Numbered from the stretch's first letter, positions 923 through 64,000 are shown. The stretch: DNA of 64,000 bases from Desulfosudaceae bacterium (GCA_963674745.2 CAXXDV010000001.1:1344001-1408000), one strand, 5' to 3'. Notes: generated by a model not told the origin, from the letters alone. Program-made: numbers and translations.

Positions 923-957
923 CCAGTTAAAGAAATTAAAATAAGGAGTCATATTTA

Positions 958-2340: not shown

Positions 2341-2396
2341 TCAGGGCCGGGCAAAACGTTTTCAACAAGCTCAATTTTATGCATAAGGAACAATAA

Positions 2397-8871: not shown

Positions 8872-9063
8872 AAGCGGTCTCCGTTCGTGTTCTAGGGCAC
8901 GGCATCTAAAAATGTGCTTTAATATCAAGATGATAATTATACATTTATAAGACCTGTCAGAAACGGTTGTCAATGAAAAACCGCCCCCTGTTTTTGATAA
9001 TGGAAAAAAATCTAAAAAGATGGTATTTTATAAAAATAATAGAAATCAATTCATGGACGTTTC

Positions 9064-44023: not shown

Positions 44024-44105
44024 CTCATGCTAAAGCTAGACTTCGGGTGACTGAAGGACGGAAAGCAACGGGTCTTTAGATTAAAGACAGCCGGGCCGCC
44101 ATGAG
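44024..44105 (+). ncRNA. c-di-GMP-I (GEMM-I) riboswitch aptamer
   Basis: P1 CTCATG/CATGAG; J1/2 ctaaagCTAGA; P2 CTTCGG-GTGA(GNRA)-CTGAAG; conserved GACGGAAAGC; P3 GGGTCTTT-agatt-AAAGAC-AGCCGGGCCGCC. Matches the GEMM layout known from Geobacter-type aptamers. Confidence 0.85.
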
Positions 44106-44117
44106 GCAAAGAACTTC

Positions 44118-44164
44118 AAGCCGGGCTGTCTGGACAAAAAGACGGCCCGGCTTTTTTTGTTTTT
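44118..44164 (+). terminator. Intrinsic terminator (riboswitch expression platform)
   Basis: AAGCCGGGCTGTC-tggacaaaaa-GACGGCCCGGCTT followed by a T-run, in the leader of the transglutaminase gene. Confidence 0.85.
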
Positions 44165-44286
44165 GGGGGAGTGTTTCAACATACCAGAAAAGATTTACCA
44201 ACTGAACAACAACATTAAGACAAATTTATTGCCATTCCGGGCGAAAGGGGTGAAGACCAGCATGATAATATTGTAGAATATTACAA

Positions 44287-45213
44287 GTGCTTGAGTCTTT
44301 TCGCATAAAAACTTTGATAATAAAGAAAAAATTGATATTTACCGGTTTTGTTTTTGTTCTGATTCTGGTAATGGGCGGTGCGGTTTATTTTATAAAATAT
44401 AACGAGCGTGTTGTTTCTTATACAGTACCCAGGCAAATCAGATACGGCTTTACGGTTCAGAACACGACCAACAGGTTAATAAACAATGCGGGGCTTTTTG
44501 TTTACGCGCCGGTAAAACAGACCGGTTCGCAATTGTGCAGCGCCATTGAGGCGTCTCACCCCTATACGATGGAGATTGATGCCCTTGGTAACCAGGTACT
44601 CAAGTTTACTTTTGAGAAGCTCCCACCCTATGCCACCAGAATTATAAACATTAAAGCAGAAGTAATGCTTTCGGAAGAGCCGAATCGCCTGCCCGGTGCA
44701 AAGAAAGACCGGGCCGCTTTCCTGAAACCGGAAAAATATGTGGAATCAGATCAGCCCGCGGTTATTAAAAAGGCGCAGGCATTAAAAAAGAAAAAAACGG
44801 TTGATACAGCCGAGAGCATTAATAATTTTGTCGCCGGTCATATCCAGCAGGTCGGTTATATCCGCAATGAACGGGGGGCACTTTACGCCCTGTCCCGTAA
44901 AAAAGGGGACTGCACGGAAAATATGGACCTGTTTACCGCCCTGTGCCGGGCAACAGGTATCCCGTGCCGGAGAGTCGGCGGATACATCTGCCGGAATAAC
45001 TGCCTGCTGTCAGCCGGCGGATTTCACAACTGGGCTGAATTCTATGATAAAGATCGCTGGTTTCTGGCAGATCCACAGCAGCGTGTCTTTATGCAGAAAC
45101 CAGACGACTATATCGCTTTCAGGATTATCAGCGATACCAGCGAAAACAGTATGCAGCACTATAACCGGTTTCGCGTTCAGGGGAAGGGCGTGACCGTTAA
45201 AATGAATTCATAA
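44287..45213 (+). CDS. Membrane-anchored transglutaminase-like protein
   Basis: N-terminal TM segment; Cys-His-Asp triad motifs GDCTEN, FHNWAEFY, WFLADP; ALCRATGIPCR. Exact start uncertain. Confidence 0.9.
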   Translation: MLESFRIKTLIIKKKLIFTGFVFVLILVMGGAVYFIKYNERVVSYTVPRQIRYGFTVQNTTNRLINNAGLFVYAPVKQTGSQLCSAIEASHPYTMEIDALGNQVLKFTFEKLPPYATRIINIKAEVMLSEEPNRLPGAKKDRAAFLKPEKYVESDQPAVIKKAQALKKKKTVDTAESINNFVAGHIQQVGYIRNERGALYALSRKKGDCTENMDLFTALCRATGIPCRRVGGYICRNNCLLSAGGFHNWAEFYDKDRWFLADPQQRVFMQKPDDYIAFRIISDTSENSMQHYNRFRVQGKGVTVKMNS

Positions 45214-45306
45214 GCAGCACCAGCAATAATATTAAATAAGATCCGGGATATCCGGTCATAAAAGGGCCGATCCGCCTTTTACAAAACCACCATTATGGGG
45301 GAAAGA

Positions 45307-48300
45307 ATGGGTACAATCAGTCGACTGAAAAATGGGTTGTTTGTCCTTTTTGCAGCGGTTTTCTGCTTTGCGACTATGCAAGCAACTTTATCAATTGCTG
45401 AAGATTCCGAGGAACCAGTTTGCGCTAAGGTCAAAATCGAGATACGCCAGGAACTGACCCTGGAACGACAGGCCTTTGACGCGCATATGCGCATCAATAA
45501 CGGATTGTCAGACATAGACCTGATCAACCTCAAGGTGGATATCATCTTTACCGATGAAGAAGGCAATTCCGTTGTTGCTACAACAAGTACTATTCCGGAT
45601 GATACGACTTCTGGTGCCTGTTTTTTTATTCGCAAGGATTCGGACAATATTACCCTCCTGGCAGATGACACCTGGAAGCTTGATAACGTCACCCCTTCTA
45701 CTTCCTCTGATTTTCACTGGCTGATTATTCCGGTTCCCGGATCCGCCGGAGATGATCCTGAAGGCAAACTCTATTTTGTCGGCGCGAGGCTGACATATCA
45801 AATGGGTGCCAACGGAGAAGAGCATATTGTGGAAGTGCGCCCTGATTCCATTTCTGTAAAACCGTTGCCGGAACTCACCCTGGACAGTTTTTTGAAATAC
45901 TGGGTATATGGTGATGACCCCTTAACGGAGGATGTTGTTGAACCCTTAATACCCTTTACGCTTGGAACACGGGTCAAGAATACCGGTAACAGCACCGCTT
46001 ATAACCTGAAAATCGAGTCCGCTCAGCCTAAAATCGTCGACAACGAAAAAGACCTGTTGGTCACATTTACCATTATCGGCAGCGAAGTCAACGGCGTGGT
46101 AACAGAAAACAGCCTGATGGTGGATCTGGGTAATATTGCGCCGGGCGAGGCCGCCATTGGTCGCTGGCTGATGACCAGCAGTCTTGTGGGCGAATTCACC
46201 GAGTTTGATGCCACCGTGTCGCATGCCGAAGCCCTGGGCGGGCAGGTCACCTCGATCATGAACAGTGACGGTATTAAAACCTGGTCTTTGATAAAGGATG
46301 TGCTGGTGGATCTGCCCGGCCGGGACCAGATCCGGGATTTTCTCGCCCTGACTTTTGATAATCCGCAGGTTCTGAAAGTGTGTGAATCAGAAGACGTGAA
46401 TGGTGTTTGGGATTCGGATGTTGTCGATCTTACCGGCGACGCATCAGTATCCTTTAACGACACATCATCCGGTGATGATACAACCTATAAGCTTCAGTTT
46501 TCCTCTTCTTCTCCTTTTGTTTATGTACGGGTTGCAGATCCGTTTGAAGAGGAGAAGATCATTAAAGAAGTGATCCGCAGTGACGGCAAACACATAAAAT
46601 CAGATAATGCCTGGCTGTGCAAAGAAAGAAACGATGATAAGGAATGGGAATACTTTTTCAATCTTTTCGATTTTGATTTCAATTCTACCGAAGATTATAC
46701 CGTTGTTTTTGATACGTCGATCGCGAATGATCCACCGAATTTTGTTGATTTAGACGAGCAGATAGGAACGGAAGACGAATTGTTGGAATTTACGGTTTCC
46801 GCAACTGATCCTGAAGGGGAAACGCTGACCCTCTCCGTTTCCAATCTTCCGGAAGGAGCTGATTTTATAGATAACGGTGATGGTACCGGGATCTTCAGCT
46901 GGACGCCCGCAATCGGTCAGGCAGGTGACTATGCGCCTGTTTTTCGGGCCAGTGACGGGCACACAACGGTTGTTATGATCGTACCCGTTGAAATCCGTTC
47001 AATAAACGATACGGATGGCGACGGCATGGATGATGACTGGGAAAAGGAATATTTCAATGATAGCCTGGAACGGGATGGCACCGGGGACTTTGATAGTGAC
47101 GGTATTTTAGATCTTGATGAATATTTAAACGGAACAGATCCAACAAGGGAAGACTATGGCCCGTCGCCACCGCTCATTGTATCACCCGCCGAGGGGCAGG
47201 ACGTGACCGTTCTTTCTCCTGTTTTGACAATCGACAACAGTACGGATCCGGACGGTGATACCCTGACCTATGACTTTGAGGTTTTCTCGGACTTGCAGCT
47301 GACCGACCGGGTGGCTGCTGCTCATGGTATGGCCGAAGGCGTTGACACCACGGCCTGGTCCGTTACCGGCGACCTGGACGACAATACACTGTACTACTGG
47401 CGTGTCCGGTCGTGTGACTATGCTGCTTCAAGTATCTGGACATACGGCACCTTTTTCGTAAATACAGCCAATGAAGCCCCCGGCGTTTTTAACATCAGCC
47501 GTCCGGCTGACGGCTCTTATGTGGACACCCTGACACCGGTCCTGGAAGTCACCAACAGCAGCGATGTCGATCAGAATGTCCTTACATACAAATTTGAGGT
47601 GTATGTACATAGTGACCTGACCGGTCTAGTTGCTTCGGTTACAGATAAATCGGCCGGCACCAGCGGTACCACCGCCTGGACGGTGGATACGAATCTTACT
47701 GATGAAACCACGTATTACTGGAAGTCGGTGGCGGTCGACCCCGATGGCCTGGAAACATCAACAACCGGTTCCTTTACCGTATCCACCGCCAACCAGGCGC
47801 CGAGCGCGCCGGCCATAGATGCCCCGGCTGTCGGTGAGAGGGTTATTGTTCATCAACTGGATATTGTCGTTACCAACGCGGTCGACCCGGAAGGGAATAC
47901 CCTGGTCTACGACTTCCAGCTCGATACGGTCAATACGTTTGACAGTTCAAATCTGGTAACAGCCGCTGATATTCCCGAAGGCACGGCCTCAACCGCCTGG
48001 TATGTGACCGACCTGTTCAGCAACACCACTTATTTCTGGCGGGCACGTGCTTTTGACGGGGCCGCTTACAGCCCCTGGGTGACAGGCAATTTTCTGGTCA
48101 ATCCCATCAATCAGGCGCCCCAGACACCGACCCTGAACAACCCGGGCCATACCGCCTGGGTCCAGTCGCTTACCCCGGAACTGGCCGTCAATCCCGCCAT
48201 TGATCCGGATGGGGATGATCTGAACTATTATTTTGAGTTGTATTCGGACAGCGAATTTGAAGACCTGGTTTTTGAAGGATCTTCCGCCCAGCCGTCTTTT

Positions 48301-51120
48301 GTTGTTCCTTCAGAGCTTGATGATAATACCCGTTATTTCTGGCGGGCTTTGGCGGAAGACCCGGATGGCGAAGTCAGCGAATGGATGGAAGACGCGCAAT
48401 TTTTTGTCAGGGCGTATGGGAGCGGTTCAGATGATCTGACGGTCAACGTAACAACAAGTAACGAGACGCCGGTTGTTGACGTACCTGTTTATGCTTTTAC
48501 GGCTTCAGGATCATATACGGGGCTTAAATCCCAGACCGATGATGATGGCGACGCCCTGTTTGTACCGGATGATTTTGCATCAGGCGATTATCAATTCCGG
48601 GTGGATTATATGGGAAGTCAATTCTGGACGGAAACGATATCCATGCCCGAAACCACGCTGGTAGAAAAAAGCATAGAAGTTGAAACTGTGGAAGTAACGG
48701 TTTCAACCGCTACCGGTGTTGTTGAAGGCGCACCCGTCTATCTGTTTACTGCTGATAAAAGCTATCTTGATCTCGACGAAGTTACCGATGTGGACGGTAT
48801 GGCCGACTTCATACTGCCCGTGGAAGAAGACTTTGTTTTCCGGGCGGATATCTTGTCCAGCCAATACTGGAGTGATGTGACGACCGTGTCCGTCGGAGCA
48901 ACCAATGAGGTGGCGGTGGAGGCCGGCGGCGGTGAATGGACGCTCTACGTCCTGAAAGACGCCTTTTGGCCCATGGAAGAAATAAACACCTATTTGTTTA
49001 AGGATAACGGTGCCTATCTGAATAAAAACGAAACCACCGACGTGTCAGGAGCGGTTTTGTATAATGTTCCGGAGGGCGTCTATAAAGTCAGGGCGGATTA
49101 TCTGGGATACCAGTTCTGGACCGAGGATACGACCGTAGATGATGATATAACCCTTGACCTGGATATTGCCCACCAGGATGTTGTTATCGATGTTGTCGGC
49201 ATGTATCAGGGCACGGCCGACCCCCTGGAAGACCTCAGTGTCTATCTCTTCACGGAGGCAGGCGCATATATGAATCTCAACCAGAACACCGATGTCGACG
49301 GCCAGGCCCTTTTTAATCTGCCTGAGCAGGCCTATAAAGTCCGGGCCGATTTCCTCAACAGGCAGTATTGGTCCGAAATCTTTACATGGGAAGACCGGAC
49401 AATCGAGATCCCCATGGCGGAAGTCGAGATCACAGTCGTTGATGGCGTACCCATAACTGATGTGCCGGTTTATGTATTCAACGAGGCCGGTGCTTATCTG
49501 AACATCACCGGAACCACCGATACCGACGGTACAGTATCGTTTCGTATTCCCGCCGGCTTATATAAATTCCGGGCGGACTATCAGACCCATCAATTCTGGA
49601 GCGGCACAGCTCAATTAACAGCGGATCAGGAGAATCCTGTAACCATTTATACCGGGGGAGGACTCTTTTCCCTGACGGTCACAAAAGACGGCACCCTGCC
49701 TGTCTTCGGCGAGAACTGTTATGTCTTTAACGAGATTGGGACATATATTGGATTGACGGGTGTGACCGACAGTTGCGGCCAGGTCGGTTTTGATCTGTCT
49801 GACGGCATCTACAACTTCCGGTTAGATTATTTGGGCTATCAGTTCTGGTCAGGGTTCTTGACCGTACCGGAAGCCTTGAGCGAGGCCATGATTATTCCCC
49901 ATCAGGATACGATTGTCACCGTCAACAGCGTCTACCAGGATACGATTGAGCCATTAGTCGAAATTAAAACGTATCTCTTCACCGATTTGGATATTTATAT
50001 GAACCAAAGTCCGGTCACCGATGTCAACGGCCAGGTGGCCTTTGATCTGCCTGAGCAGCCATATAAAGTCCGGGCCGATTACCTGGGCCGGCAATACTGG
50101 TCTGAAGCGTTTACATGGCAGGAAAAAACCATCGAAATTCCCACGGCCGAAGCCGAAATTACGGTAGCCGGAAACGGACAAACGCTGGAAGGAATACCGG
50201 TTTATGTCTTTAATGAGGACGAAGATTATTTAAATATCACTGATATTACCGACATGGATGGTCAGGTCTCCTTCCGGCTTCCGGCCGGTGATTACAAGTT
50301 CCGTGCTGATCATCAGGGCAGCAACTACTGGAGTGAGATTGTCGGTTTGACGGCTGATCAGGTCAATACGATTGACATCTCGACCGGCGGTGGCACTTTT
50401 AACCTGACCGTTTTAAAAAGTGCCACCGAGTCCCTGGTCGGTGCCGGGTGCTATCTTTTCGGCAGCAGCGGTAATTACTTGAACCTGTCGGCTGTCACCA
50501 GCAGTGAGGGCCAGGTGTCCTTTGACGTGGCCGACGGTGATTATAAGGTCCGGGTGGACTATCTCGGCTATCAGTTTTGGACGGAAACCTTTACCGTGCC
50601 CGATACACTTTCAAAAGTATTGACCCTACCCCATCAGAACGTAACCATAACAGTTACCAGGGAATATCAGGCTCAAACCCCGCTGGAAGGAGTTCCCGTT
50701 TACCTATTCAAACCTTCCGGTACTTACATGAACCAAAGGCTGAGCACGGACGTCAATGGCCAGGCGGTTTTTTATCTGCCCGACCAGGCCTACAAGGTCA
50801 GGGCGAATTATCTGGGCAACCAGTTCTGGTCGGCCGACTTTCAAGCCACTGATACCGCCGTCACCATTGACCATAACCTGGTGAAAGTGCATGTTCACCG
50901 ATCGGGCACTGATGTGGTCGGGGCGGTAGTTTACCTTTTCACAGGCAGCGGATCATACCTGAGCACAAACCAGGCCACCGACAGCACAGGCATGGTGGAT
51001 TTTCTGCTGCCGGAGAGGGATTTTAAATTTCGGGCCGATCAAGGCAGCGACAAGGTTTACAGCACGGTCATCAGTGTACAGACGGGGCCGGAGCAGGTAG
51101 TGGAGATCGATCTGGATTAA
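45307..51120 (+). CDS. Giant secreted acidic protein (~1937 aa): Ig-like, Ca-binding Asp repeats, 4 FN3-like and 11 beta-sandwich modules
   Basis: Sec signal; SATDPEG..L...NLPEGA.F (putative Ig); DTDGDGMDDDWE; 4 x DPDGD.L.Y.FE...YYWR; 11 x VY.F...G.Y....TD..G...F.LP...YKVRADY. Track start is 45295; 45307 has the better RBS. Confidence 0.9.
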   Translation: MGTISRLKNGLFVLFAAVFCFATMQATLSIAEDSEEPVCAKVKIEIRQELTLERQAFDAHMRINNGLSDIDLINLKVDIIFTDEEGNSVVATTSTIPDDTTSGACFFIRKDSDNITLLADDTWKLDNVTPSTSSDFHWLIIPVPGSAGDDPEGKLYFVGARLTYQMGANGEEHIVEVRPDSISVKPLPELTLDSFLKYWVYGDDPLTEDVVEPLIPFTLGTRVKNTGNSTAYNLKIESAQPKIVDNEKDLLVTFTIIGSEVNGVVTENSLMVDLGNIAPGEAAIGRWLMTSSLVGEFTEFDATVSHAEALGGQVTSIMNSDGIKTWSLIKDVLVDLPGRDQIRDFLALTFDNPQVLKVCESEDVNGVWDSDVVDLTGDASVSFNDTSSGDDTTYKLQFSSSSPFVYVRVADPFEEEKIIKEVIRSDGKHIKSDNAWLCKERNDDKEWEYFFNLFDFDFNSTEDYTVVFDTSIANDPPNFVDLDEQIGTEDELLEFTVSATDPEGETLTLSVSNLPEGADFIDNGDGTGIFSWTPAIGQAGDYAPVFRASDGHTTVVMIVPVEIRSINDTDGDGMDDDWEKEYFNDSLERDGTGDFDSDGILDLDEYLNGTDPTREDYGPSPPLIVSPAEGQDVTVLSPVLTIDNSTDPDGDTLTYDFEVFSDLQLTDRVAAAHGMAEGVDTTAWSVTGDLDDNTLYYWRVRSCDYAASSIWTYGTFFVNTANEAPGVFNISRPADGSYVDTLTPVLEVTNSSDVDQNVLTYKFEVYVHSDLTGLVASVTDKSAGTSGTTAWTVDTNLTDETTYYWKSVAVDPDGLETSTTGSFTVSTANQAPSAPAIDAPAVGERVIVHQLDIVVTNAVDPEGNTLVYDFQLDTVNTFDSSNLVTAADIPEGTASTAWYVTDLFSNTTYFWRARAFDGAAYSPWVTGNFLVNPINQAPQTPTLNNPGHTAWVQSLTPELAVNPAIDPDGDDLNYYFELYSDSEFEDLVFEGSSAQPSFVVPSELDDNTRYFWRALAEDPDGEVSEWMEDAQFFVRAYGSGSDDLTVNVTTSNETPVVDVPVYAFTASGSYTGLKSQTDDDGDALFVPDDFASGDYQFRVDYMGSQFWTETISMPETTLVEKSIEVETVEVTVSTATGVVEGAPVYLFTADKSYLDLDEVTDVDGMADFILPVEEDFVFRADILSSQYWSDVTTVSVGATNEVAVEAGGGEWTLYVLKDAFWPMEEINTYLFKDNGAYLNKNETTDVSGAVLYNVPEGVYKVRADYLGYQFWTEDTTVDDDITLDLDIAHQDVVIDVVGMYQGTADPLEDLSVYLFTEAGAYMNLNQNTDVDGQALFNLPEQAYKVRADFLNRQYWSEIFTWEDRTIEIPMAEVEITVVDGVPITDVPVYVFNEAGAYLNITGTTDTDGTVSFRIPAGLYKFRADYQTHQFWSGTAQLTADQENPVTIYTGGGLFSLTVTKDGTLPVFGENCYVFNEIGTYIGLTGVTDSCGQVGFDLSDGIYNFRLDYLGYQFWSGFLTVPEALSEAMIIPHQDTIVTVNSVYQDTIEPLVEIKTYLFTDLDIYMNQSPVTDVNGQVAFDLPEQPYKVRADYLGRQYWSEAFTWQEKTIEIPTAEAEITVAGNGQTLEGIPVYVFNEDEDYLNITDITDMDGQVSFRLPAGDYKFRADHQGSNYWSEIVGLTADQVNTIDISTGGGTFNLTVLKSATESLVGAGCYLFGSSGNYLNLSAVTSSEGQVSFDVADGDYKVRVDYLGYQFWTETFTVPDTLSKVLTLPHQNVTITVTREYQAQTPLEGVPVYLFKPSGTYMNQRLSTDVNGQAVFYLPDQAYKVRANYLGNQFWSADFQATDTAVTIDHNLVKVHVHRSGTDVVGAVVYLFTGSGSYLSTNQATDSTGMVDFLLPERDFKFRADQGSDKVYSTVISVQTGPEQVVEIDLD

Positions 51121-51175
51121 ACGGTTATGATCGACATGCTTTTCGTAAAAGGAATGGCGTTCCGGGAGTAGCGTT

Positions 51176-52009
51176 ATGAGATTTCTTATATTGATAATTC
51201 AAATGATGTTGAGTCTGGTTCCGGCAGCAGCTGCCCTGGCAACTGATACACCGCCGGCTGGTTCTTCCGCAGCAGCCCCTCTGGTGACTCACGACTATAC
51301 CTTGTCCCTTACGGCCAATTCAATTCGTCACAAGATCGAAAAGGAAGCACCAGTCGTGATCGTGGATGTCAGAAACCGGTCGGACTATGAGAAGATTCAC
51401 ATCACGTCCGCCATTAATCTCCCGCTTTATGCGGTCAAGACCAAGCCGTTTTTTAAACGAAGTACGCTGGTGCTGACCAACAACGGGTTTAATTACGGCC
51501 TTCTGGAAAAGGAAGCCGGACGTCTCAAAGAACTGGGCTTTGATGTTTCAATCCTGCGAGGAGGAATCAATGCCTGGCTGGAAGCGGATTTTCCGCTGAC
51601 CGGTGATGTCTTTTCCCAAAAGGATGTCTGGCTGGTTGAGCCCAAAGATGCCTGCCTGGAGCAGCGATACAATTCCTATCTGGCGGTCAACGCGGAACCT
51701 GAAAAAAAATCAGGCTCAATGTTTTCAAACGTGATGGACCTGGAACCAACCGATCCAGCCGTTATTGGAAAACTGAAAAAATATAATCAGAACCACCCGG
51801 CCAATAATGTGCTGGTGTTTAACGAGACCGGCGAAAGCTATGCCCCCATCAGAGAACAGCTGCTTGAAGCCGGTGTCAGGCATGTGTTTTGTCTCAAGGG
51901 CGGGCTGGAAGGTTACGCGACATATCTTCATAACCTTGAGTTGTCCAGGGCGCCCCGGGAAAAACGGATCGTATCCACTGAAAAATGCAAAAGATGCAGA
52001 GATTTATAA
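51176..52009 (+). CDS. Secreted tandem rhodanese-like domain protein
   Basis: Signal peptide; IVDVR...YEKIHITSAINLP, ILRGGINAW, CLKGGLEGY. Confidence 0.8.
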   Translation: MRFLILIIQMMLSLVPAAAALATDTPPAGSSAAAPLVTHDYTLSLTANSIRHKIEKEAPVVIVDVRNRSDYEKIHITSAINLPLYAVKTKPFFKRSTLVLTNNGFNYGLLEKEAGRLKELGFDVSILRGGINAWLEADFPLTGDVFSQKDVWLVEPKDACLEQRYNSYLAVNAEPEKKSGSMFSNVMDLEPTDPAVIGKLKKYNQNHPANNVLVFNETGESYAPIREQLLEAGVRHVFCLKGGLEGYATYLHNLELSRAPREKRIVSTEKCKRCRDL

Positions 52010-52111
52010 ACGGCTTGTGCCGGCCGCGGAACTACTGGCCGGACTATTAATAATAACACGCAAATATTATTACGACACATTAAACATTATAAAAGAATGA
52101 GGTCATCCCCC

Positions 52112-55100: not shown

Positions 55101-58100
55101 ATATCGTTCCTGCCTCAACCTATACGTTTAAAATTATTATCGTTGACGATGCGTCCAACAAAAGCGAGGGCCTGGAAATCAACGCCGCCACCCTGGTGGC
55201 CAACCCCGCTGCGCCTGATACGGTTGCCAATGACGGGTATGTCTCCTTGTCCTGGGATGAGCCGGATTCTTATGCTCGGGGTATAGCCAGTCCCATCAAG
55301 CGTTACGTCGTCTATAAGTCGGAAACTGACGCCATCACATCGCTCAACCAGATGACCTGGGCCTTGACCACCACGTCCACCTCGGCCAATGTGGCCGGCC
55401 TGACCAACGGCCAGAATTATTATTTTGCCGTGGCCACGGTGAATATCTCCGGCTGCAAGGACGATGCGGTCAATCTTTCCGGCGCGGTTGTGCCCCTGGC
55501 CGACGATATAGACCCCACCATCGGCGAACTTCAGTTTAACGGTACAACTTTTAACGAAGTTAATCCGCTGACCGGCTCCGGCGATTTTGAGCTTACCGCC
55601 ACGGACGCCTCCGGCATCAGCCGGGTGGAGTTTGTCGTGCTGGACGGCAGCAATGATGAGGTGTTCCGTACCACGGATTATTCACCGGTTTATACCTGTA
55701 ATATGGACCTGCTGGCCTTTCATAACCAGTCCTATACCCTGCAGGTCACGGTTTACGATACCATCGGCAATGAAGCATTTTTGGAGTATCCCTTTACCGT
55801 CGCGATGCCTGCGCCCGCCGTCCCTGTTATCAACAGCCCTGTCGACGGGTTCTCCACAAACCAGAGTGCAATAACCGTCAAGGGCACGGCCGAACCCCTG
55901 TCAACCATTACCTTTTACGTCAACGGCACGGAACAGCAGACGACCACCACGACCAACGCCTCGGGCAATTTTTCCGGCAGCGTCGATTTGGTCAAGGGCA
56001 CGTCGGATATTACGACAAACAATATCAATGCCACGGCCACGGCCGCAAATCGGCCTCAAACGAGCGGTCATAGCACCACCATTACCGGTTACCTTGATAC
56101 ATCCATCCCGGATGCGCCCGTGCATCTGACCGCGGAGCCGCTTGAAGGCGGAAAAGTCCACCTCACCTGGGACTGCATGGCATCCGATCTGGCCGGGTAT
56201 AATATTTACCGTCACACTGCATCGTTTGAGACCGCCACTGCGGCAATCAGGGTTAACAGCTCGCCGGTAAAAGTCCTCCAGTTTACAAATGCGCCGGAGG
56301 TGGAAGGCCTTTACTATTATAGTGTTACGTCCGTCAACAGCCTGGGCACGGAAAGCGCGTTGTCCAATCAGGTGGAGGCCCAGAGCGATGCTTCCGGACC
56401 CGAAGTCGATATTACCTATACGCCCCAGGGCCCTGTCAGTCCTGTTGACGGCGCCATCGGCCCCGGACGGGTGGACGTCACCCTGGTCGTCAACGAACCC
56501 CTCTTGACCACCCCGTTCTTCAGCATGGTGCCCGACGGCGGTGTCCTCATCCCGGTCGACCTGACCAAAATATCGGACACGGAATATAGCGGTTATTTTA
56601 CAATAGAAGCAGATACCATTTCAGCGGAAACCTATGCTGTATTTTCCGCCCGGGACAGGGTCGGCAACCGCGGCACCACAGTGCCGGCGGAAGACCAGTC
56701 GATTCTCGTCGATGCCCGCGGCCCGGAAGTGATCCGGCTGGATGTCACACCGGCCGCCCCCATTGATAACAACGGCCCTGTGACGGTTACCGCTGTCTTT
56801 GGTCTGGATGAGCCGATCCCGCAAAGCGATGACCATGATTACCCGGTCTTTGAATGGGAACTGTCCGGAGCCCCGGGGTCCTCATATCCGACAAACACGG
56901 CGGTTGAAATCGATCCCCAGCCGGAAGAAGCCCAGGCCTGGCGGGTATCTTTTACCATCCCGGCAATGGCGGTATCTGCCGACTATGAATACCTGTCTTT
57001 TTCCCTTGAGGGTATCGATTATCTGGGCAACATCGGTGATACCATTAGCGCCGACAATGCCTTTGAAATCTATCAGGGTAACCTGCCTAAACTGGATCCG
57101 CCCACCAGCCTGACCGGCACTTCTCTGCCATATGGAGATATCGAACTTTCCTGGGATGCGGTGGATAATGCCTCCGGATACAAGCTGTACCGTGGAACGA
57201 CAACAGGTGACCTTACTGAAATTTATGAAGCCCCGGCCGGAATCACCACCTATACAGATACGAACCAGCCTGGGGATGGCGACTATTTTTATGCCATTAC
57301 CAGTATAAGAGAGGAAAACAGCCTGAGCAGCGAAAGTGTGCAGCGTGTTCTGACCCAAAGCGTCAGTTCCGATTCCGCGCTTCCGCTCGCGCCCGCAAAT
57401 CTGTCCCTGGAACTGGTGCCCAACGGCATTCAGGCCACCTGGGAATATTCCGCTGCCGATCAGGTTACCTATTCTCTTTACCGGTCCCTGAATTCCATAT
57501 CCTCTGTTGACGGCCTGGAGCCGATTATCCAGGGCATCTCAATGGCCAACATTTCGGTCATCGACCCCAACCCCTCCGAGACCGACCACTACTATGTGGT
57601 GGTTGCCGTGGACGATGCCGGCAATATCTCTCCCTTGTCAAATAACGATGATCTCGACCCCGGCCTGTTGCCGGTCACCTCGCTTAATATCGTGCAGGAA
57701 GACCTGTCCGATCCGGTCATCTCCTGGACGACCACAGGAAGCAGTATTGTGGGATGCAACATCTACATGGGCGAAGCATCCAATGATGATCCACTGAACG
57801 ACACCCTCATCACCACCAATACTTACACTGACACAGGGTATGCAGAAGATCAGCGCACCTACACTGTAACCACTGAGAATAACAGTGGAACAGAAAGCCT
57901 GGATCGTGTTATCACCCTGCCCAAAGTGACCGCTGTCCGGGCTGCTGATGCCCGGATCGACCGCGGCATCATGAACGGACTGACCTATACGGTTACCAAT
58001 CATTCCAGCGACGATATCGATCCCATCCAGCTCCAGGTCGATGTTGTGCTGGAGGATGATTCTGAAAAATCTCATCTGTCGACTCCGTTCGCGCTCGCAG

Positions 58101-61100
58101 CCGGCGAAACCCGGGATGTCTCCGTCATTATCGGTGGTTATGAAAACCTGCTCGATAATACCGAGATCACCACCACCATCAAGATTACCGAAGATGTCAA
58201 TGAAACCATTGATATTATCCGCACCGGCTACATAGACGTGGGTGACGGCCTGCTGGGCCTGCGCCTGACCACGGAAACCTTCACCCGTGGCGGAGACGGC
58301 CAGGTCCGGTTCAGCCTGGAAAACACCTGCGCCGAAGAAATCGAGATTATCAGCGCCCGCAATTTCGGGGATGACCCCTCCGATCAAGTCGTTATTTTTC
58401 TGGAGGATTTTGAAGGCAACCCTGTGGCCACCCGGAGCTATAAGTGCGCCATCGCTCCCAGCGTCACCCAGACAGACGGCACCAGCGTGATCAGTATACC
58501 CCCGGGTCAGACTTTCGAATCCGAACTCATCACCATACCCGTGCCGGCCAACGCGTCCGACGATCTGATCGCGCGCCTGTCCATAGCCCATATCTATTAT
58601 CATTTCAACGATCCGGATCAGGTTGAAATGGGTGAAATGAGTACATCCCTGCCCGTGTCCCTGGTGGATACTTCCTACTATGGTGAAGTCACCTCGGTTT
58701 CTCCGGCAAACTCCTCCGGAGACACGGACATTACCATCTCCGGCCATGCCATGGAACGGGGAACCGGGGACGTCCTGTCCGGCGTGCCCTTGACCGTGGT
58801 CATCACCAATAACGGGTTTGAACGCAAGGCCACGGTCTATACCGACCAGAGCGGCTGTTTTGAATATCTGTATACCCCCACAATCGGTTCGTCCGGCACC
58901 TTCCAGGTCTGCGCCGTTCATCCCGACCTGACCGAACGGCCCGTGCAGGGCACCTTTGTCATTAACCAAATCAACCTGCAGTATTCCGCCTATAACCTGA
59001 CCCTTCCCCGGGGCCTTGCTTATGATGTCACCCTTGCAGCCACTGCCGGCAGCGGCACCGCTGCCACCAGCCTGGGCTTCGAATACCGGGCCCAGGACCA
59101 GGACGGCGGCGTTTTCCCGGCCGGTATAACCGTCACTCCCGGCACGTTCATCGATCTTGATTCAGGGGAATCAGCCCCGGTTTCTTTTACCATTGAAGGA
59201 GACCTTTCTGCAGCAGATACCAGCCGGATTGTTCTGCGCCTGGTCAGTAGTGAAGAACCCACCAACGGCTGGGACACCCTGGAAGTCAATCTCAGCCTGG
59301 TCGAGTCCAGGCCCTCCCTGTGGACCACGCCGGATTATCTTATGACCGGTATGAATACCGGCGACTATATCACCGAATCCGTTGTTCTGGAAAACAAAGG
59401 CTATGCCGACATGGAAAGTCTCTCCCTGTCCCTTATCAATAGTGACGGGAGTGCCGTTCCGGACTGGATCTATATCTCCTCGCCCACCCGGATCAGTTCA
59501 CTGGCAGCCGGCGCCACCTCAAATGTGAGCATTGTCCTGTCTCCGCCGGCGGATTTTGCCCCTGATGTGCTCTACCTGTACCTCAAAATCACCAGCGGAA
59601 ACCACGCGGATGTGAAAATTCCCATCAGCGTAACCGTCACCACCGATGTCACCGGCCAGGTCCTGTTCCATGTCAGCGATTTTTACACAGGCACCCCGGA
59701 TGATTATAACGAGCCGATTAACGGGCTGGCCAATGCCAGAATTCTTGTTCAGAATGAAGCAACCTTTGATGAATATACCCTGACCACGGATACCGAAGGC
59801 GAAGCCCAGTCTCCGCCCATACCCGTCGGCAATTACCGCGTGCGCGTCCGGGCGGATAACCATCAAGAACTTGTCGACCGTATCTGGATCAAGCCCGGTA
59901 TCACCCTGGCAAAAGAGATATTTCTTGCCAATCAACTGGTCACGGTCGAGTGGGAGGTGGTGGAAACCACCATTGCCGATAAATATGAAATTATTTATAC
60001 CGCCACTTTTGAAACTGATGTGCCGGCCGCCATTGTCGTGTCCGAGCCCCCGGTTATTGAAATCCCGGACGGCATGAAGGTCGGCGATGTCGCCAACGGC
60101 GAAGTGAAATTGACGAATAAAGGTCTGATCCGGGCGGAAGATATCGACCTGCCTGCCCCTGTATGCGAATATTTTCAGGTCGAATATATCGGCGTTCCGG
60201 AAAGCATTCAACCCCACCAAAGCGTTAGTGTTCCTTACCGCATTACCTGCCTCAAGCTGCCCTACGCGGATGCAGGGCAGGACGGTACCGGTGGAGATAC
60301 GGAATCAGAATACGATGAAGAGACCTGCAGCGAAAAAATCAGAAAATGCAATAAAGGATATTACACGTTTACGTGTTCCAATGGAACGACATTTAAAAAG
60401 GAGTTTGAGTCCTGCGTTGATTATACGGAACACTATCCACGTAATCCTGACGGATCCTGCGACTGGACCACTGATTCGAATAATACTGACAAGAGTGAAG
60501 CGGCAGATGATCTGATTGAGCAAGATCAGAAAGAATTTGAAAAAGAAATGCAGGAACTGATGGACAGCGGGGAATTAGCCGCAATGTGCGCGGGAGAAAC
60601 CGACGGATGTGAAGATGATGATGACGATGATGATTTCTGTGACAAGTTTGAAAAAGATCACAACCTTGATGAAACCGGGTCGGCCGTTGATTTGTTGAAT
60701 TTTATGTATACACGCGACGACACCGACCTGTCCTTGCAGGTGCCCGGCGGCCTGTTTGAAATGACCCGGCAGTATAAAGACGGCCAATGGGACTGGGGCC
60801 TTTCAAAGAAAAACCTGACGCTCAATTATGAGGATGACCAGATCGCGTCGATTGATAAAAACGGTATAATTTTCCGAAAAGTGCCGGAAAGTCCTTCGGA
60901 TGTAAAAGCGCTGTTTACCAACACCAGCTATAAAATCACCCAGCAGATGGACGATACCTTTGTCTGGCAGAGCCGCGGCGGAAATTATAAATTTTATGAT
61001 GCCCAGGGCCGGCTGACCGAAGTGGGTGATGCCAACGGCCCCCAGCGCTACCTGATATATAGCGGCCAGTATCTGATCGGGTATAAAGATAAAGACGATC

Positions 61101-64000
61101 AGCAGTTCTTGTGGCTTGAATATACCGGCAATCAGATTCTGCGTATCCAGGACAATAACAATCGTGAAGTTCAGTATGACTATACGGTTGATGGCTTGCT
61201 GGAAACCGTTACCTTTGTCAACGATTTAAGCGAAAGCAAGGTCATTTACGGCTATGGCTATGATGATGTCGGCAACCTGACGTCTGTCTGGCTGGCCGGT
61301 GACGGAGAGGTGGATATCCAGAACGACGATCCCACCTATACCATTACTTACAATGAATTAAATATGGCCAAGTCGGTCGTTGACAGCACCGGCCAGGGCA
61401 AATATTTCAGTTACAACTATTTTTCAGAAAGAAAAGAGCGTTACGCTTCTTCAGAAACCTCTGACGGTCAGATCAAAGAGATCTGGTATGACGACGAGGG
61501 CAATGCCAAACGCATGGATATCAATGGTGAAACCCAGTTTGCCATTGAAATAGACGGCCGCACCACCCGTATCACCAGAAACGGCCATACCACCTCAAAT
61601 TATTACGATGAATGGGACAATGAAATTAAAAGAGAGTTTCCGGACGGCTCATCCATCACCCGTGAATTCGAACGCAAGTTCAGCAAGATGACCAGCAAAA
61701 CAGACGAGAACGGCGTTGTCACCGAATACACCTATGATGACAAGGGCAACCGGACCAGCATGACTGAAGCTGTGGGGACCCCGGAAGAACGGACGACCGA
61801 ATACGAATACGAAGACGGTAACCTCATCGAAACCCGCATCCTGGGGGTAACCGATATTGTCACCACCATGACCTATGATGATGACGGCAATCAGACGTCC
61901 ATCACCACCGATGCCGAAGGAGACGCGGTAAAAACCGCTTTTATCCATGATATCATGGGTAATGTCCTGACCAGAACCGTGGATCCGGATGGTGTAAACC
62001 TGGTCTGGACCTATACCTATGACGACCGGGGCAATATGCTTTCTGTTGAGGACCCGGAACACCGGCTAACTCAATATGAGTATGATCTTGGCGGCAGAAA
62101 GACCAAACAGATCGCCCCGGATTTAACCGAGACCCTGTATGAATATGACAGCGTCGGCAACATGATCAAACAGACAGTGGTGATGAGTCCGGAGAACATT
62201 GTCACCACATTTGAATACGGGTATGACAACAAACTGTTAAAAACCATTGATCCTGAAGGTGCGGTTACAGAATATGTCTACGACTCCCGGGGCAGAAGGG
62301 TCAAAACCATTGATCCTGCCGGAAACGCAACAATTACGGCATATGATCCGATCGATTCAGGCGGATGCACTTCATGTTCCGGAAGTGCCGGCCAGCCTAT
62401 ACGGATAACCTATCCCACTTATGAAAAAGCCTTTGTCTATGACGAACGCAACAGGAAGATCGCCGAGAAGGTCATTACCGCTGAGCAAACCTTTGAAACC
62501 CTGTTTGTGTACGATCCGGTCGGTAATTTGATCGAAAAAACGGATAAAGATAACCAGACCACGTATTATGAATACGATGCCTTAAACCGGCTGATCCGGG
62601 TGACGGACCCAAACCAGGGCCAGACCTCTTATACCTATGACAACCGGGACAATATGACCTCTTTGACCGATGCCCAGGGCAATACCACCGAGTTTGAATA
62701 TGACGCCAACAACCGCCTGGTAAAGGAAACCCGGCCCGAAGGTGAAATAACGACTTATGATTATGACTTGATGGGCAACCTGATCGAAAAGATCGATGCC
62801 AAAGACCAGAAAACCGAATATGACTATAATAATGCCGGCCAGTTGGATGAAACCCGTTATTATGACGCATCGCTCACCCTGGTCAAGACCGTCAGCTTCA
62901 CCTATGATGACGCGGGTAATCTCGAAGGTTACAATGACGGTACGACATCTGCCGTCTATGTTTTCGACAAGGCCGGCAGAAAAACCAGCGAGACCGTGAC
63001 CTGTGGCGGCTATAGCTGGACCAATACTTACACCTATTTGAAAAACGGGCTCAAGGATACCTTTACCGGCCCGGACAATGTCACTTACACCTATATGTAT
63101 GACACGGCCAATCGTTTGGCCGGGGTCCAGATGCCTGCCGGTGTCGGATTTCTGACGGTCAACGGTTACAACTGGAACCGGCCGGCCGGCTTTACCCTGC
63201 CCGGCGGCGGCGCCAGGGAAACCCTCTATGATCCGCTGATGCGGATAAAGCAGATTATCGGCAAAGACCCGGGCGGGAACGACTTGTTGAATTATGACTA
63301 CACCTATGACACAATGGACAACATCACTTCCAAAGCCACCGAGCACGGGGATTATAATTACGATTACGACAATCTGCACAGGCTTGTTGATGTTGACAAC
63401 CCCGAGGTAGCCGGACTGGCTGACGAAGAATTTACTTACGACAACGTGGGTAACCGCCTGACCACAGAGGATAGTACAAGTGATTGGGGCTACAATAGCA
63501 ACAACGAACTTCAGTCATCTTCAGACACCACAGGGAACGCTGTGTACGAGTACGATGACAACGGTAACACCATTAAAAAGACTGTTGCTGGTGTTGTCAC
63601 AAATTACGTGTATAATGTAGAAGACCGCCTCACCGAAGTCAGAGACGGCTCGAATAATTTAATAGCCAGTTACTATTACGATCCCTTTGGCAGAAGATTA
63701 AGCAAGATAGTCGGTGGAACAAAGACTTACTATCATTACAGTGATGAAGGTCTGGTAGCTGAAATTGATTCTTACGGTAATGTCGTTAAGTCCTATGGCT
63801 GGCAGCCGGGTGGTACCTGGGGAACTGACCCACTGTTCATGAGAGTTGGAGGTGCTTACTACTTCTACCACAACGATCACCTGGGTACGCCACAGAAACT
63901 GACGGCTGCTAATGGTGCTGTTGTCTGGAGCGCTAAGTACAGTAGCTTTGGTGAGGCAGTTGTTGAGGTCGATACGGTTGAGAACAACCTGAGGTTCCCG
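52112..64000 (+). CDS. Giant RHS/YD-repeat protein (>3960 aa, 3' end outside window): signal peptide, beta-helix modules, FN3/Ig domains, YD repeats, RHS core
   Basis: ATG at 52112 with GAGG RBS. The same frame reads ...YYFYHNDHLGTPQKLT...VVWSAKYSSFG...NNLRFP at the window end. The track lists no terminated ORF in this frame across the interval, and spot translations at 52.1, 59.9, 60.3, 62.4 and 63.8 kb are open and in frame. Confidence 0.9.
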   Translation, partial: MTALTIDKRSKIRQRQIRYRQLMIHMMMVVMMLPVLLAGTPDLSLAATTVSEHIRASKTWDLSGSPYIVTNEVFVCDNAKLTIVAGVVVKFNAGASLKIGYSSTSWGALSAVGEQDNHIVFTSNVSPQNPGDWKGIYFTSATSSTTQLNYCTIEYGGHTNNANLYLANSAAFSISEVIVQKSSGHGIYISYSNPVISNCRIIDNQSDGIYCDNGEGSTVYTTTIADNLFVNNGGAAINTRGYINSITGSQGYDNGVNGISVRSGYIRGDCTWSAQDLPFVVQGDVSIINNKKLTITPGAIIKFNAGAGLRIGYSSTSWGALSAVGEQDNHIVFTSNVSPQNPGDWKGIYFTSSTSSTTQLNYCTIEYGGHTNNANLYLGSSPAAFSIGDTTEGEVIVQKSSGYGIYIGASNPIISNCRIIDNQSDGIYCDNGEGSTVYTTTIADNLFVNNGGAAINTRGYINSITGSQGYDNGVNGISVRSGYIRGDCTWSAQDLPFVVQGDVSIINNKKLTITPGAIIKFNAGAGLKIGYSSTSWGALSAVGEQDKHIVFTSNVSPQNPGDWKGIYFTSSTSSTTQLNYCTIEYGGHTNNANLYLSNVASTVPTIQNSDIRASSDSGIYIATSSPVISCNNIMENVEGIHYEYGSATPTIENNNILENTGMEFYAGTAVTIGSNWWGPSGDPGIVEISDNVTYGVLAEIACNTGVVVDNPPYPPAKPSPADGAGVAIYENGELIDFTTLSWSCTDYNPADTPDLNFDVYFGTNPDALPEVSSEQTDNAYTVANSGLSLNTTYYWKIVARDSQDSLGRIISGPVWSFTTSGYAPARVTNLSIDGVGDGKSAVLDWDGYTDPLNTVIDRFEIYQYGSTFDKLDYEDPVADPVKVGQVEGDVFTYQAVDLQRGNTYYFAVVPVDEFNNYYTDGLTSVTGTLTDEQAPGEVTDITVVSGANQLTFNWTAPGDDDLAGYEIYFDDAEVPATIDVNDPNSTSYTVDDTMDPDIVPASTYTFKIIIVDDASNKSEGLEINAATLVANPAAPDTVANDGYVSLSWDEPDSYARGIASPIKRYVVYKSETDAITSLNQMTWALTTTSTSANVAGLTNGQNYYFAVATVNISGCKDDAVNLSGAVVPLADDIDPTIGELQFNGTTFNEVNPLTGSGDFELTATDASGISRVEFVVLDGSNDEVFRTTDYSPVYTCNMDLLAFHNQSYTLQVTVYDTIGNEAFLEYPFTVAMPAPAVPVINSPVDGFSTNQSAITVKGTAEPLSTITFYVNGTEQQTTTTTNASGNFSGSVDLVKGTSDITTNNINATATAANRPQTSGHSTTITGYLDTSIPDAPVHLTAEPLEGGKVHLTWDCMASDLAGYNIYRHTASFETATAAIRVNSSPVKVLQFTNAPEVEGLYYYSVTSVNSLGTESALSNQVEAQSDASGPEVDITYTPQGPVSPVDGAIGPGRVDVTLVVNEPLLTTPFFSMVPDGGVLIPVDLTKISDTEYSGYFTIEADTISAETYAVFSARDRVGNRGTTVPAEDQSILVDARGPEVIRLDVTPAAPIDNNGPVTVTAVFGLDEPIPQSDDHDYPVFEWELSGAPGSSYPTNTAVEIDPQPEEAQAWRVSFTIPAMAVSADYEYLSFSLEGIDYLGNIGDTISADNAFEIYQGNLPKLDPPTSLTGTSLPYGDIELSWDAVDNASGYKLYRGTTTGDLTEIYEAPAGITTYTDTNQPGDGDYFYAITSIREENSLSSESVQRVLTQSVSSDSALPLAPANLSLELVPNGIQATWEYSAADQVTYSLYRSLNSISSVDGLEPIIQGISMANISVIDPNPSETDHYYVVVAVDDAGNISPLSNNDDLDPGLLPVTSLNIVQEDLSDPVISWTTTGSSIVGCNIYMGEASNDDPLNDTLITTNTYTDTGYAEDQRTYTVTTENNSGTESLDRVITLPKVTAVRAADARIDRGIMNGLTYTVTNHSSDDIDPIQLQVDVVLEDDSEKSHLSTPFALAAGETRDVSVIIGGYENLLDNTEITTTIKITEDVNETIDIIRTGYIDVGDGLLGLRLTTETFTRGGDGQVRFSLENTCAEEIEIISARNFGDDPSDQVVIFLEDFEGNPVATRSYKCAIAPSVTQTDGTSVISIPPGQTFESELITIPVPANASDDLIARLSIAHIYYHFNDPDQVEMGEMSTSLPVSLVDTSYYGEVTSVSPANSSGDTDITISGHAMERGTGDVLSGVPLTVVITNNGFERKATVYTDQSGCFEYLYTPTIGSSGTFQVCAVHPDLTERPVQGTFVINQINLQYSAYNLTLPRGLAYDVTLAATAGSGTAATSLGFEYRAQDQDGGVFPAGITVTPGTFIDLDSGESAPVSFTIEGDLSAADTSRIVLRLVSSEEPTNGWDTLEVNLSLVESRPSLWTTPDYLMTGMNTGDYITESVVLENKGYADMESLSLSLINSDGSAVPDWIYISSPTRISSLAAGATSNVSIVLSPPADFAPDVLYLYLKITSGNHADVKIPISVTVTTDVTGQVLFHVSDFYTGTPDDYNEPINGLANARILVQNEATFDEYTLTTDTEGEAQSPPIPVGNYRVRVRADNHQELVDRIWIKPGITLAKEIFLANQLVTVEWEVVETTIADKYEIIYTATFETDVPAAIVVSEPPVIEIPDGMKVGDVANGEVKLTNKGLIRAEDIDLPAPVCEYFQVEYIGVPESIQPHQSVSVPYRITCLKLPYADAGQDGTGGDTESEYDEETCSEKIRKCNKGYYTFTCSNGTTFKKEFESCVDYTEHYPRNPDGSCDWTTDSNNTDKSEAADDLIEQDQKEFEKEMQELMDSGELAAMCAGETDGCEDDDDDDDFCDKFEKDHNLDETGSAVDLLNFMYTRDDTDLSLQVPGGLFEMTRQYKDGQWDWGLSKKNLTLNYEDDQIASIDKNGIIFRKVPESPSDVKALFTNTSYKITQQMDDTFVWQSRGGNYKFYDAQGRLTEVGDANGPQRYLIYSGQYLIGYKDKDDQQFLWLEYTGNQILRIQDNNNREVQYDYTVDGLLETVTFVNDLSESKVIYGYGYDDVGNLTSVWLAGDGEVDIQNDDPTYTITYNELNMAKSVVDSTGQGKYFSYNYFSERKERYASSETSDGQIKEIWYDDEGNAKRMDINGETQFAIEIDGRTTRITRNGHTTSNYYDEWDNEIKREFPDGSSITREFERKFSKMTSKTDENGVVTEYTYDDKGNRTSMTEAVGTPEERTTEYEYEDGNLIETRILGVTDIVTTMTYDDDGNQTSITTDAEGDAVKTAFIHDIMGNVLTRTVDPDGVNLVWTYTYDDRGNMLSVEDPEHRLTQYEYDLGGRKTKQIAPDLTETLYEYDSVGNMIKQTVVMSPENIVTTFEYGYDNKLLKTIDPEGAVTEYVYDSRGRRVKTIDPAGNATITAYDPIDSGGCTSCSGSAGQPIRITYPTYEKAFVYDERNRKIAEKVITAEQTFETLFVYDPVGNLIEKTDKDNQTTYYEYDALNRLIRVTDPNQGQTSYTYDNRDNMTSLTDAQGNTTEFEYDANNRLVKETRPEGEITTYDYDLMGNLIEKIDAKDQKTEYDYNNAGQLDETRYYDASLTLVKTVSFTYDDAGNLEGYNDGTTSAVYVFDKAGRKTSETVTCGGYSWTNTYTYLKNGLKDTFTGPDNVTYTYMYDTANRLAGVQMPAGVGFLTVNGYNWNRPAGFTLPGGGARETLYDPLMRIKQIIGKDPGGNDLLNYDYTYDTMDNITSKATEHGDYNYDYDNLHRLVDVDNPEVAGLADEEFTYDNVGNRLTTEDSTSDWGYNSNNELQSSSDTTGNAVYEYDDNGNTIKKTVAGVVTNYVYNVEDRLTEVRDGSNNLIASYYYDPFGRRLSKIVGGTKTYYHYSDEGLVAEIDSYGNVVKSYGWQPGGTWGTDPLFMRVGGAYYFYHNDHLGTPQKLTAANGAVVWSAKYSSFGEAVVEVDTVENNLRFP
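52379..53897 (+). repeat. Near-identical intragenic tandem repeat, about 2.3 copies, periods 636 and 654 bp
   Basis: ATTGGGTATAGCAGTACTTCCTGGGGCGCGCTTTCAGCC recurs near 52406, 53042 and 53696. Shadow ORFs repeat at the same offsets. Confidence 0.92.

Follow-up and report, generated by a model that had tools for sequence, protein, structure and literature searches.

Four closely spaced genes in the genome of a Desulfosudaceae bacterium probably form a riboswitch-gated operon for a giant polymorphic toxin, exported by Sec, and for three conserved helpers of the cell envelope. The helpers are a transglutaminase-fold enzyme, an Ig-repeat protein with a distinct N-terminal module (IgN) and a tandem rhodanese-like protein. 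The stretch of DNA analysed, called the window hereafter, comprises 64 000 nucleotides of contig C1 of the genome under study (G000:C1:1344001-1408000), which is 99.96% complete. Coordinates are those of the window unless a contig or a locus is named.

Organization of the locus

The operon was delimited using ORF calls, Rfam and a terminator scan. Its features are as follows:

44025-44103, + strand: c-di-GMP-I (GEMM-I) aptamer (Rfam RF01051; 50.7 bits, gathering score 35; E 5.7e-07; model 1-87 covered in full)
44086-44130, + strand: predicted antiterminator, formed by the aptamer 3' strand (44086-44096) and the terminator 5' arm (44120-44130)
44118-44163, + strand: intrinsic terminator (stem-loop 44118-44153; 14-pair stem with 9 G-C pairs, 8-nt loop, T-run)
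44287-45213, + strand: transglutaminase-fold cysteine enzyme (308 aa, GTG start, Pfam Transglut_core 7e-19)
45295-51120, + strand: IgN partner (1941 aa; signal peptide, N-terminal module at about aa 40-480, then repeats)
51176-52009, + strand: exported tandem rhodanese-like protein (277 aa, Pfam Rhodanese 1.2e-14)
52097 to 64558, + strand: giant RHS protein (4153 aa; aa 1-3968 are in the window and 558 nt lie outside it)

The four genes have one orientation and are located downstream of the aptamer and the strong terminator. They are separated by gaps of 81, 55 and 87 nt, in which the terminator scan detected no strong terminator on the + strand. Each of the four products has a single hydrophobic segment, which is N-terminal. 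Read by eye, these segments would correspond to one signal anchor (transglutaminase-fold enzyme) and three signal peptides with Ala-x-Ala-like sites. The GEMM riboswitch with its terminator, the four co-oriented and closely spaced genes, and the export or anchor signals on all the products had been described in a first-pass annotation of this DNA and were all confirmed.

Housekeeping genes for an Rnf/Nqr-type complex are found upstream of the operon on the opposite strand (up to 43498). The other upstream genes encode regulators, transporters, a glycyl-radical enzyme and an RND efflux set. An alkylmercury-lyase-like gene adjoins the glycyl-radical enzyme gene (8029-11562). The RND efflux set (80-5480; outer-membrane factor, HlyD-type adaptor and AcrB) is 39 kb away from the operon and is not a T1SS. 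The ORFs scanned (upstream ORFs of at least 150 aa) gave no match with the PAAR, VgrG, TPS or POTRA families, and neither a T1SS ABC gene nor a LapD-like gene was present among the ORFs scanned around the locus. This agrees with the first-pass annotation, which had seen no PAAR/VgrG, two-partner transporter or T1SS gene. It had also proposed Sec export, a view upheld by the Sec-type signals on the products and by the absence of the T6SS sheath gene VipB/TssC from the 99.96% complete genome. Four secretins are encoded in the genome. Since no outer-membrane translocator is encoded in the locus, surface display is an assumption. IS and tyrosine-recombinase genes border the locus.

The giant RHS protein and its tips

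The RHS protein consists, in order, of a signal peptide, three beta-helix repeats of about 240 aa, an fn3/Ig (Big) array, a Cys-rich acidic linker and the RHS region. The fn3/Ig stalk accounts for about 2000 residues. RHS_repeat (PF05593, 4.6e-59, 8 stretches), RHS, Beta_helix and fn3 were identified with Pfam and TIGR01643 with NCBIfam. The RHS-associated core (TIGR03696 Rhs_assc_core, 91.7 bits against a cut-off of 32.5) ends near aa 4024. It is followed, beyond the window, by a Cys-rich C-terminal tip of 129 aa that carries an HEQKH motif (HExxH). No Pfam or NCBIfam match was obtained with this tip; atlas clusters gave weak metallopeptidase leads (SprT-like and Tox-MPTase4, scores below 0.9).

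Five orphan tips are located downstream of the main RHS gene, on the opposite strand (64804-80537; locus L010 804-16537). They begin with the junction motif RVDP/KVDP (four RVDPIG/VG-like, one KVDPSH), and the gene behind each of them encodes a product with a hydrophobic segment at its start. The tips diverge after the RHS junction, which is itself conserved. One orphan tip is 41% identical to the main tip and carries HENIH, another one carries HEMVH, and a weak Tlde1 match, below the Pfam cut-off, was found in one of the five. No same-strand immunity gene follows the main tip, where the + strand holds only ORFs of 48 and 38 aa; the next gene is convergent and encodes a 289-aa product with a signal peptide. 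The first-pass annotation had pointed downstream for cargo and immunity genes: the HExxH tip and the five orphan tips with immunity-like genes are what is encoded there.

An IS transposase gene is inserted inside the orphan array and two adjacent tyrosine recombinase genes are present at its far end. DNA of the main-gene junction (63998-64149) recurs in inverted orientation at 68702-68827, 75230-75359, 76983-77113 and 78136-78287 (127-152 nt, 72-78% identity). Tip swapping through site-specific inversion by the two tyrosine recombinases is conceivable, the inverted repeats being the sole evidence for it. In G045 and G287, the giant proteins have a HINT/pretoxin-HINT end and no RHS shell (L089 10863-13262 (-) and L091 4646-7045 (-)); IgN is adjacent in both.

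On the basis of the RHS-associated core, the orphan tip and immunity-like cassettes and the HINT-ended homologues, we are strongly confident that the RHS protein is a polymorphic toxin. It had previously been regarded as an RHS cargo carrier within a surface assembly. The RHS core was confirmed; the cassettes make the protein foremost a candidate polymorphic antibacterial toxin.

The IgN partner protein

The first 480 residues of the IgN partner gave no Pfam or NCBIfam match. From residue 478 on, the protein is made of repeats in which He_PIG/Big and many CarboxypepD_reg domains were recognized by Pfam. A profile of the N-terminal module was searched against 1.84 billion proteins and matched 3172 cluster representatives at E<=1e-3, of which 2081 reach E<=1e-30. 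A second search retrieved 973 proteins at E<=1e-20 among 7998 candidates scored. Among the best 120 relatives listed, the module is about 50% identical across phyla and the Pfam content varies widely (PKD, cadherin-like, CarboxypepD_reg, fn3 and others). Source names for the relatives are generic only; the named sources include Thermodesulfobacteriota, Pseudomonadota, Zixibacteria, a Parabeggiatoa and an Olavius symbiont.

An AlphaFold model of the module made from a 6-sequence alignment was poor (pLDDT 53.8), and a 40-sequence model was used instead (pLDDT 88.7, pTM 0.81). In this model, the module is composed of three beta-sandwich domains. Fold searches returned only generic tandem beta-sandwich matches (tandem-Ig, pilin and macroglobulin-domain), with a query-normalised TM of 0.20 or less in Foldseek and a best VIA Z of 8.0 over about 100 residues. 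Nothing usable for the module came from sequence searches of the atlas and the PDB. C43, near the mature N-terminus, and Q59 are invariant in the 40 sequences. C43 was considered as a lipoprotein Cys, and this was rejected because there is no lipobox upstream of it. C43 and Q59 might instead take part in a thioester or an isopeptide bond. The IgN module defines a large family without a name, usually encoded beside homologous giant proteins, putative toxins, that end in RHS or HINT.

Conservation of the gene set

A paralogous four-gene locus with the same order is present on contig 3 of G000 (2413010-2439303; loci L070, L011 and L009). The three helpers are 66-81% identical between the paralogues, and along the RHS protein identity amounts to 62-78%. 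The Ig partner of the paralogous locus has 3815 aa. Classical same-strand immunity genes and orphan tips are found at that locus, in an array interrupted by IS66-like genes.

Other loci were collected by a rhodanese-anchored scan. With one genome per species, 17 loci were obtained, six of which match most of the protein. In 401 genomes of the phylum, there were 8 rhodanese places in 5 genomes (E<1e-50), the two from G000 included. The total was 14 rhodanese-anchored places (2 own and 12 other), and their neighbours were labelled by tblastn and Pfam:

Transglutaminase adjacent to rhodanese: 8/14 places
Giant-toxin homologue adjacent to rhodanese: 8/14 places
IgN adjacent to rhodanese: 7/14 places, and 25 kb away at one more
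All four families together: 6/14 places

The six complete places show four different gene orders. Two of them are in G000 and two in G228; the others are in G150, whose contig ends within the giant gene, and in the gammaproteobacterial genome G004. The rhodanese has no partner at L060 and L015, and L013 is a 3.2-kb contig. The Ig protein is present and the toxin missing at L014. Only the enzyme is found beside the rhodanese at L016 and L064, the contig of the latter stopping 1 kb further, and the G157 locus has no enzyme over 49 kb. The first-pass annotation had made its reading dependent on co-occurrence of the four families elsewhere, and such co-occurrence is provided by the paralogue and the six complete places.

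IgN was matched in 13 of the 401 genomes, and 8 further IgN-anchored loci were examined. A giant-toxin homologue adjoins IgN at 6 of these 8 loci (with a Pfam rhodanese neighbour at 2 of the 6), and the enzyme was found at none of the 8. In G067, the rhodanese, the enzyme and the giant protein are together on another contig. At L094, a D-Ala-D-Ala carboxypeptidase (S13) gene (9369-10796 (-)) is located between the RHS toxin and the IgN partner. According to the neighbour counts at the rhodanese- and IgN-anchored loci, the stable core of the set is the giant putative toxin with IgN; the rhodanese often joins it as a helper, the transglutaminase less often.

These counts bear on the idea that there is no mechanistic linkage at all, the helpers being envelope proteins of a general kind, carried along with mobile toxin islands, and the riboswitch controlling the first gene only. 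The IS and tyrosine-recombinase genes that flank the locus, the paralogue without a riboswitch and the solitary rhodanese of L060 and L015 would fit such an idea. It is nevertheless highly improbable: linkage is kept over four gene orders and three phyla, the 55-87 nt gaps are devoid of strong internal terminators, and the orthologous operon of G150 retains both the order and the riboswitch. That the gene set is functionally linked is considered very likely.

The transglutaminase-fold enzyme and the rhodanese-like protein

The enzyme is composed of an N-terminal TM segment, a beta-rich domain and a Transglut_core domain with C209, H247 and D262. This triad is invariant (8/8) when the enzyme is aligned with seven orthologues. 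PF01841 is the only Pfam family matched; the LapG family PF06035 is not, and NCBIfam gave no match. The closest solved chains by sequence are 3isr (5.7e-15), an uncharacterised putative cysteine protease, and 6g49, a protein-glutamine gamma-glutamyltransferase. The enzyme gene directly adjoins the rhodanese gene at the 8 enzyme-bearing places and also at L098. Since it is missing at many related loci, the enzyme, judged by gene content, cannot be essential to the core pair made of the giant toxin and IgN. Any particular role assigned to it is tentative, including the processing or cross-linking put forward in the first-pass annotation.

In the rhodanese-like protein, the active-site loop reads TNNGFNY or variants, and a Cys is present there in 0/12 aligned sequences. 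The second rhodanese domain is also without the catalytic Cys in 7 close relatives. Both domains lack the catalytic Cys, and the protein is not a catalytic rhodanese (sulfurtransferase). It had been called 'Cys-less', which is right for the catalytic loop of both domains and wrong for the whole protein: four Cys are present (160, 239, 271 and 274), and the C-terminal CxxC (C271 and C274) is kept in 9 of the 12 sequences. The family is rare, with 7 proteins, own and paralogue included, in a collection of 5.8 billion proteins.

Inactive rhodanese domains are known as docking modules. In combination with an enzyme that is probably anchored in the inner membrane, faces the periplasm and has an intact Cys-His-Asp triad, and that is beside the rhodanese at all 8 places that have it, this could suggest a LapG-like release protease. 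The enzyme would cut the N-terminal part of the toxin or of IgN under regulation by the dead rhodanese, which would place a retain-or-release switch atop the transcriptional one. We find this quite unlikely, as the enzyme belongs to PF01841 and not to PF06035, no LapD-like or T1SS genes were seen at the locus and no cleavage motif was identified.

The c-di-GMP riboswitch and its leader

The RF01051 element is the only Rfam match in the whole 64-kb window. In the Rfam alignment, G, A and C are read at model positions 11, 38 and 83, which we take to be the ligand-contacting G20, A47 and C92 of the Vc2 aptamer. Aptamers of the cGAMP class carry A20 and those of the c-di-GMP class G20. With the Vc2 numbering so assumed, the aptamer nucleotides would match the c-di-GMP class and not the cGAMP class.

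The aptamer and the terminator do not overlap, and the sequence TTTTTGTTTT is found directly 3' of the terminator stem-loop (44118-44153). The antiterminator pairing involves 10 of 11 positions. It is the minimum-free-energy fold for transcripts ending at 44131 or 44140 (-35.8 and -36.7 kcal/mol, respectively); the aptamer alone folds at -23.8 kcal/mol. For the full-length leader, the best fold is aptamer plus terminator (-55.2 kcal/mol). Because the terminator is separate from the aptamer and the antiterminator is best at intermediate lengths, an OFF layout is predicted, and we think it rather likely that c-di-GMP shuts the operon off. The predicted folds favour the terminator over the antiterminator state by about 18 kcal/mol, so the terminator may form without regard to the ligand, which weakens the OFF-switch reading. 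Control by a cyclic dinucleotide had been claimed in the first-pass annotation. The aptamer does lead the operon, here and in G150; the leader suggests that the switch is OFF, not ON.

In G150, which belongs to another genus and has the same gene order, an aptamer of the GEMM-I clan is located immediately upstream of the enzyme gene. This leader (L063 9136-9215 (-)) gave RF03168 (c-di-GMP-I-UAU variant) as the best model, with 71.2 bits. The leader reads G and C at the two positions from which the RF03168 variant takes its name, instead of U at both. Its separate terminator and its intermediate fold are similar to those of the operon studied here. No riboswitch was detected at the paralogous contig 3 locus, searched up to E=1, nor at the other related loci with upstream DNA scanned (all but L066 and L069). 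As the paralogue and these relatives have no riboswitch, c-di-GMP control appears to be a local addition and not a part of the system.

Five further c-di-GMP-I elements are present in the genome (C3:66575-66655, C3:904596-904675, C3:356229-356307, C1:641517-641599 and C1:1001790-1001864, the last one below threshold). Three of the five are upstream of exported proteins of 1247-1507 aa with a signal peptide, and one is upstream of a polyketide synthase. The terminator overlaps the aptamer, i.e. the opposite layout, in two of them and is separate in three. Both switch polarities thus seem to be used in one genome. We know of no GEMM-I riboswitch that leads an RHS toxin operon. In a full-text search (subscription-only papers excluded), no paper combining riboswitch, c-di-GMP and 'RHS repeat' was found.

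The polarity of the switch matters for another explanation, in line with the surface assembly of the first-pass annotation, according to which the locus builds a biofilm or surface matrix. The Ig and RHS giants would be adhesins, induced by c-di-GMP and cross-linked by the transglutaminase, and the toxin tip would be incidental. Adhesin-type repeats do dominate both giants, the IgN tails contain cadherin, PKD and CarboxypepD_reg repeats, the enzyme has kept its transglutaminase triad, and three of the five other c-di-GMP-I elements precede large signal-peptide proteins, as mentioned above. Against this, repression by c-di-GMP is predicted from the leader layout, many loci keep both giants without a transglutaminase, and the orphan tips with immunity-like genes, the RHS-associated core and the HINT-ended homologues point to a polymorphic toxin. 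We consider the matrix explanation unlikely and retain the polymorphic toxin with its helpers.

Comparison with known systems

WapA-type RHS toxins of Gram-positive bacteria have a Sec signal peptide and a C-terminal polymorphic toxin with immunity, and act in contact-dependent competition. WapA of Streptococcus suis was reportedly the subject of a 2025 paper. The giant protein described here shares with WapA-type toxins the Sec signal peptide, the RHS repeats and the C-terminal polymorphic toxin. It differs in being about twice as long, in having beta-helix and fn3 arrays and in being accompanied by three helper genes. Since the producer is a diderm of the Thermodesulfobacteriota, the outer membrane must also be crossed, unlike for WapA.

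T6SS Rhs effectors have in common with the giant protein an RHS shell with associated core, a C-terminal toxin and orphan tips. In contrast to them, no PAAR/VgrG was matched in the protein, whose Sec signal looks cleavable, and TssC is absent from the genome. Unlike in CdiA and other two-partner toxins, neither the protein nor the scanned ORFs around it gave a match with a TPS domain or a CdiB/FhaC-type transporter. The BC cocoon of Tc toxins has TcB-type domains (SpvB and mid-N) and a TcA partner; no such family was matched by Pfam in the 3967 residues scanned.

In Pseudomonas, LapA/LapG/LapD is a system in which a giant surface adhesin exported by a T1SS is controlled by c-di-GMP through a periplasmic transglutaminase-like cysteine protease. 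The resemblance lies in c-di-GMP, in a giant protein and in a periplasmic enzyme of the transglutaminase-like superfamily. The differences are a riboswitch instead of LapD, PF01841 instead of the LapG family, Sec instead of T1SS and a giant protein that is a probable toxin. GEMM-I aptamers with a terminator are known upstream of surface-protein genes of Clostridioides difficile and exported-protein genes of Geobacter, and both ON and OFF types exist. The leader of the operon resembles these in having an aptamer with a terminator upstream of genes for exported proteins.

The closest description in print is that of Zhang, de Souza, Anantharaman, Iyer and Aravind (Zhang et al., 2012; PMC3482391). 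In the parts of that article relevant here, Sec/T2SS-type RHS polymorphic toxins are described, Sec/T2SS is the commonest route for polymorphic toxins and the HINT domain is one of their hallmarks. Inactive transglutaminase domains, in which at least one residue of the triad is missing, are reported there to be fused behind a signal peptide at the toxin N-terminus, sometimes beside bacterial Ig domains, and are guessed to anchor the toxin. As far as these parts go, the two have in common a signal peptide or TM helix, bacterial Ig domains, a transglutaminase fold, an RHS array that ends in a variable toxin, and spare toxin cassettes; dedicated secretion genes are lacking near either. Unlike the fused inactive domains of Zhang et al. 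(2012), the transglutaminase-fold enzyme is here encoded by a separate gene, with the triad intact in 8/8 sequences. The dead tandem rhodanese, the IgN partner and the riboswitch are additions with respect to the toxins in these parts of the article, and the word rhodanese is absent from it.

The first-pass annotation knew of no characterised system with this gene set. From the parts of Zhang et al. (2012; PMC3482391) considered, Sec-type RHS toxins with fused inactive transglutaminase domains are already in print, and the four-gene set was not found there. Full-text searches (subscription-only papers excluded) on the gene set, on RHS under riboswitch control and on Sec-dependent Gram-negative RHS gave only this article as relevant. 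Within the same scope, the separate intact enzyme, the dead rhodanese with CxxC, the IgN family and the riboswitch control were not found in print.

Proposed mechanism and significance

The following mechanism is proposed. The toxin would be exported by Sec, then displayed on the surface or released from it, possibly via a secretin pathway, and would attack the envelope of neighbouring bacteria. The constant IgN module may dock on the toxin stalk, its hypervariable repeat tail giving anchoring or target binding. In the periplasm, one giant or the other may be cleaved or cross-linked by the membrane-anchored enzyme. The dead rhodanese would be a non-catalytic adaptor or escort, perhaps acting via its CxxC tail and the invariant C43 of IgN. 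Binding of c-di-GMP would stabilize the aptamer, the separate terminator would form and the operon would be off; the weapon would therefore be made at low c-di-GMP.

In its most far-reaching form, which we regard as speculative and rather doubtful, the four proteins would constitute a dedicated and so far unrecognised pathway by which diderms display or deliver giant polymorphic toxins. The IgN module would dock on the stalk, the tail would pick the target and the enzyme would covalently fix or release the complex. Such a pathway, if real, would be widespread in sediment and symbiont bacteria, because more than 3000 clusters belong to the IgN family. Some lineages would have placed the pathway under c-di-GMP control, with the weapon present only at low c-di-GMP.

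The locus touches on the question of how Sec-dependent RHS/HINT toxins of diderms exit the periplasm, stay bound to the surface and find their targets. A testable parts list is offered for this, namely a helper set shared across phyla, the large unnamed IgN family and an intact transglutaminase-fold enzyme. The riboswitch would directly link c-di-GMP signalling to interbacterial weaponry, a link that can be tested in vitro.
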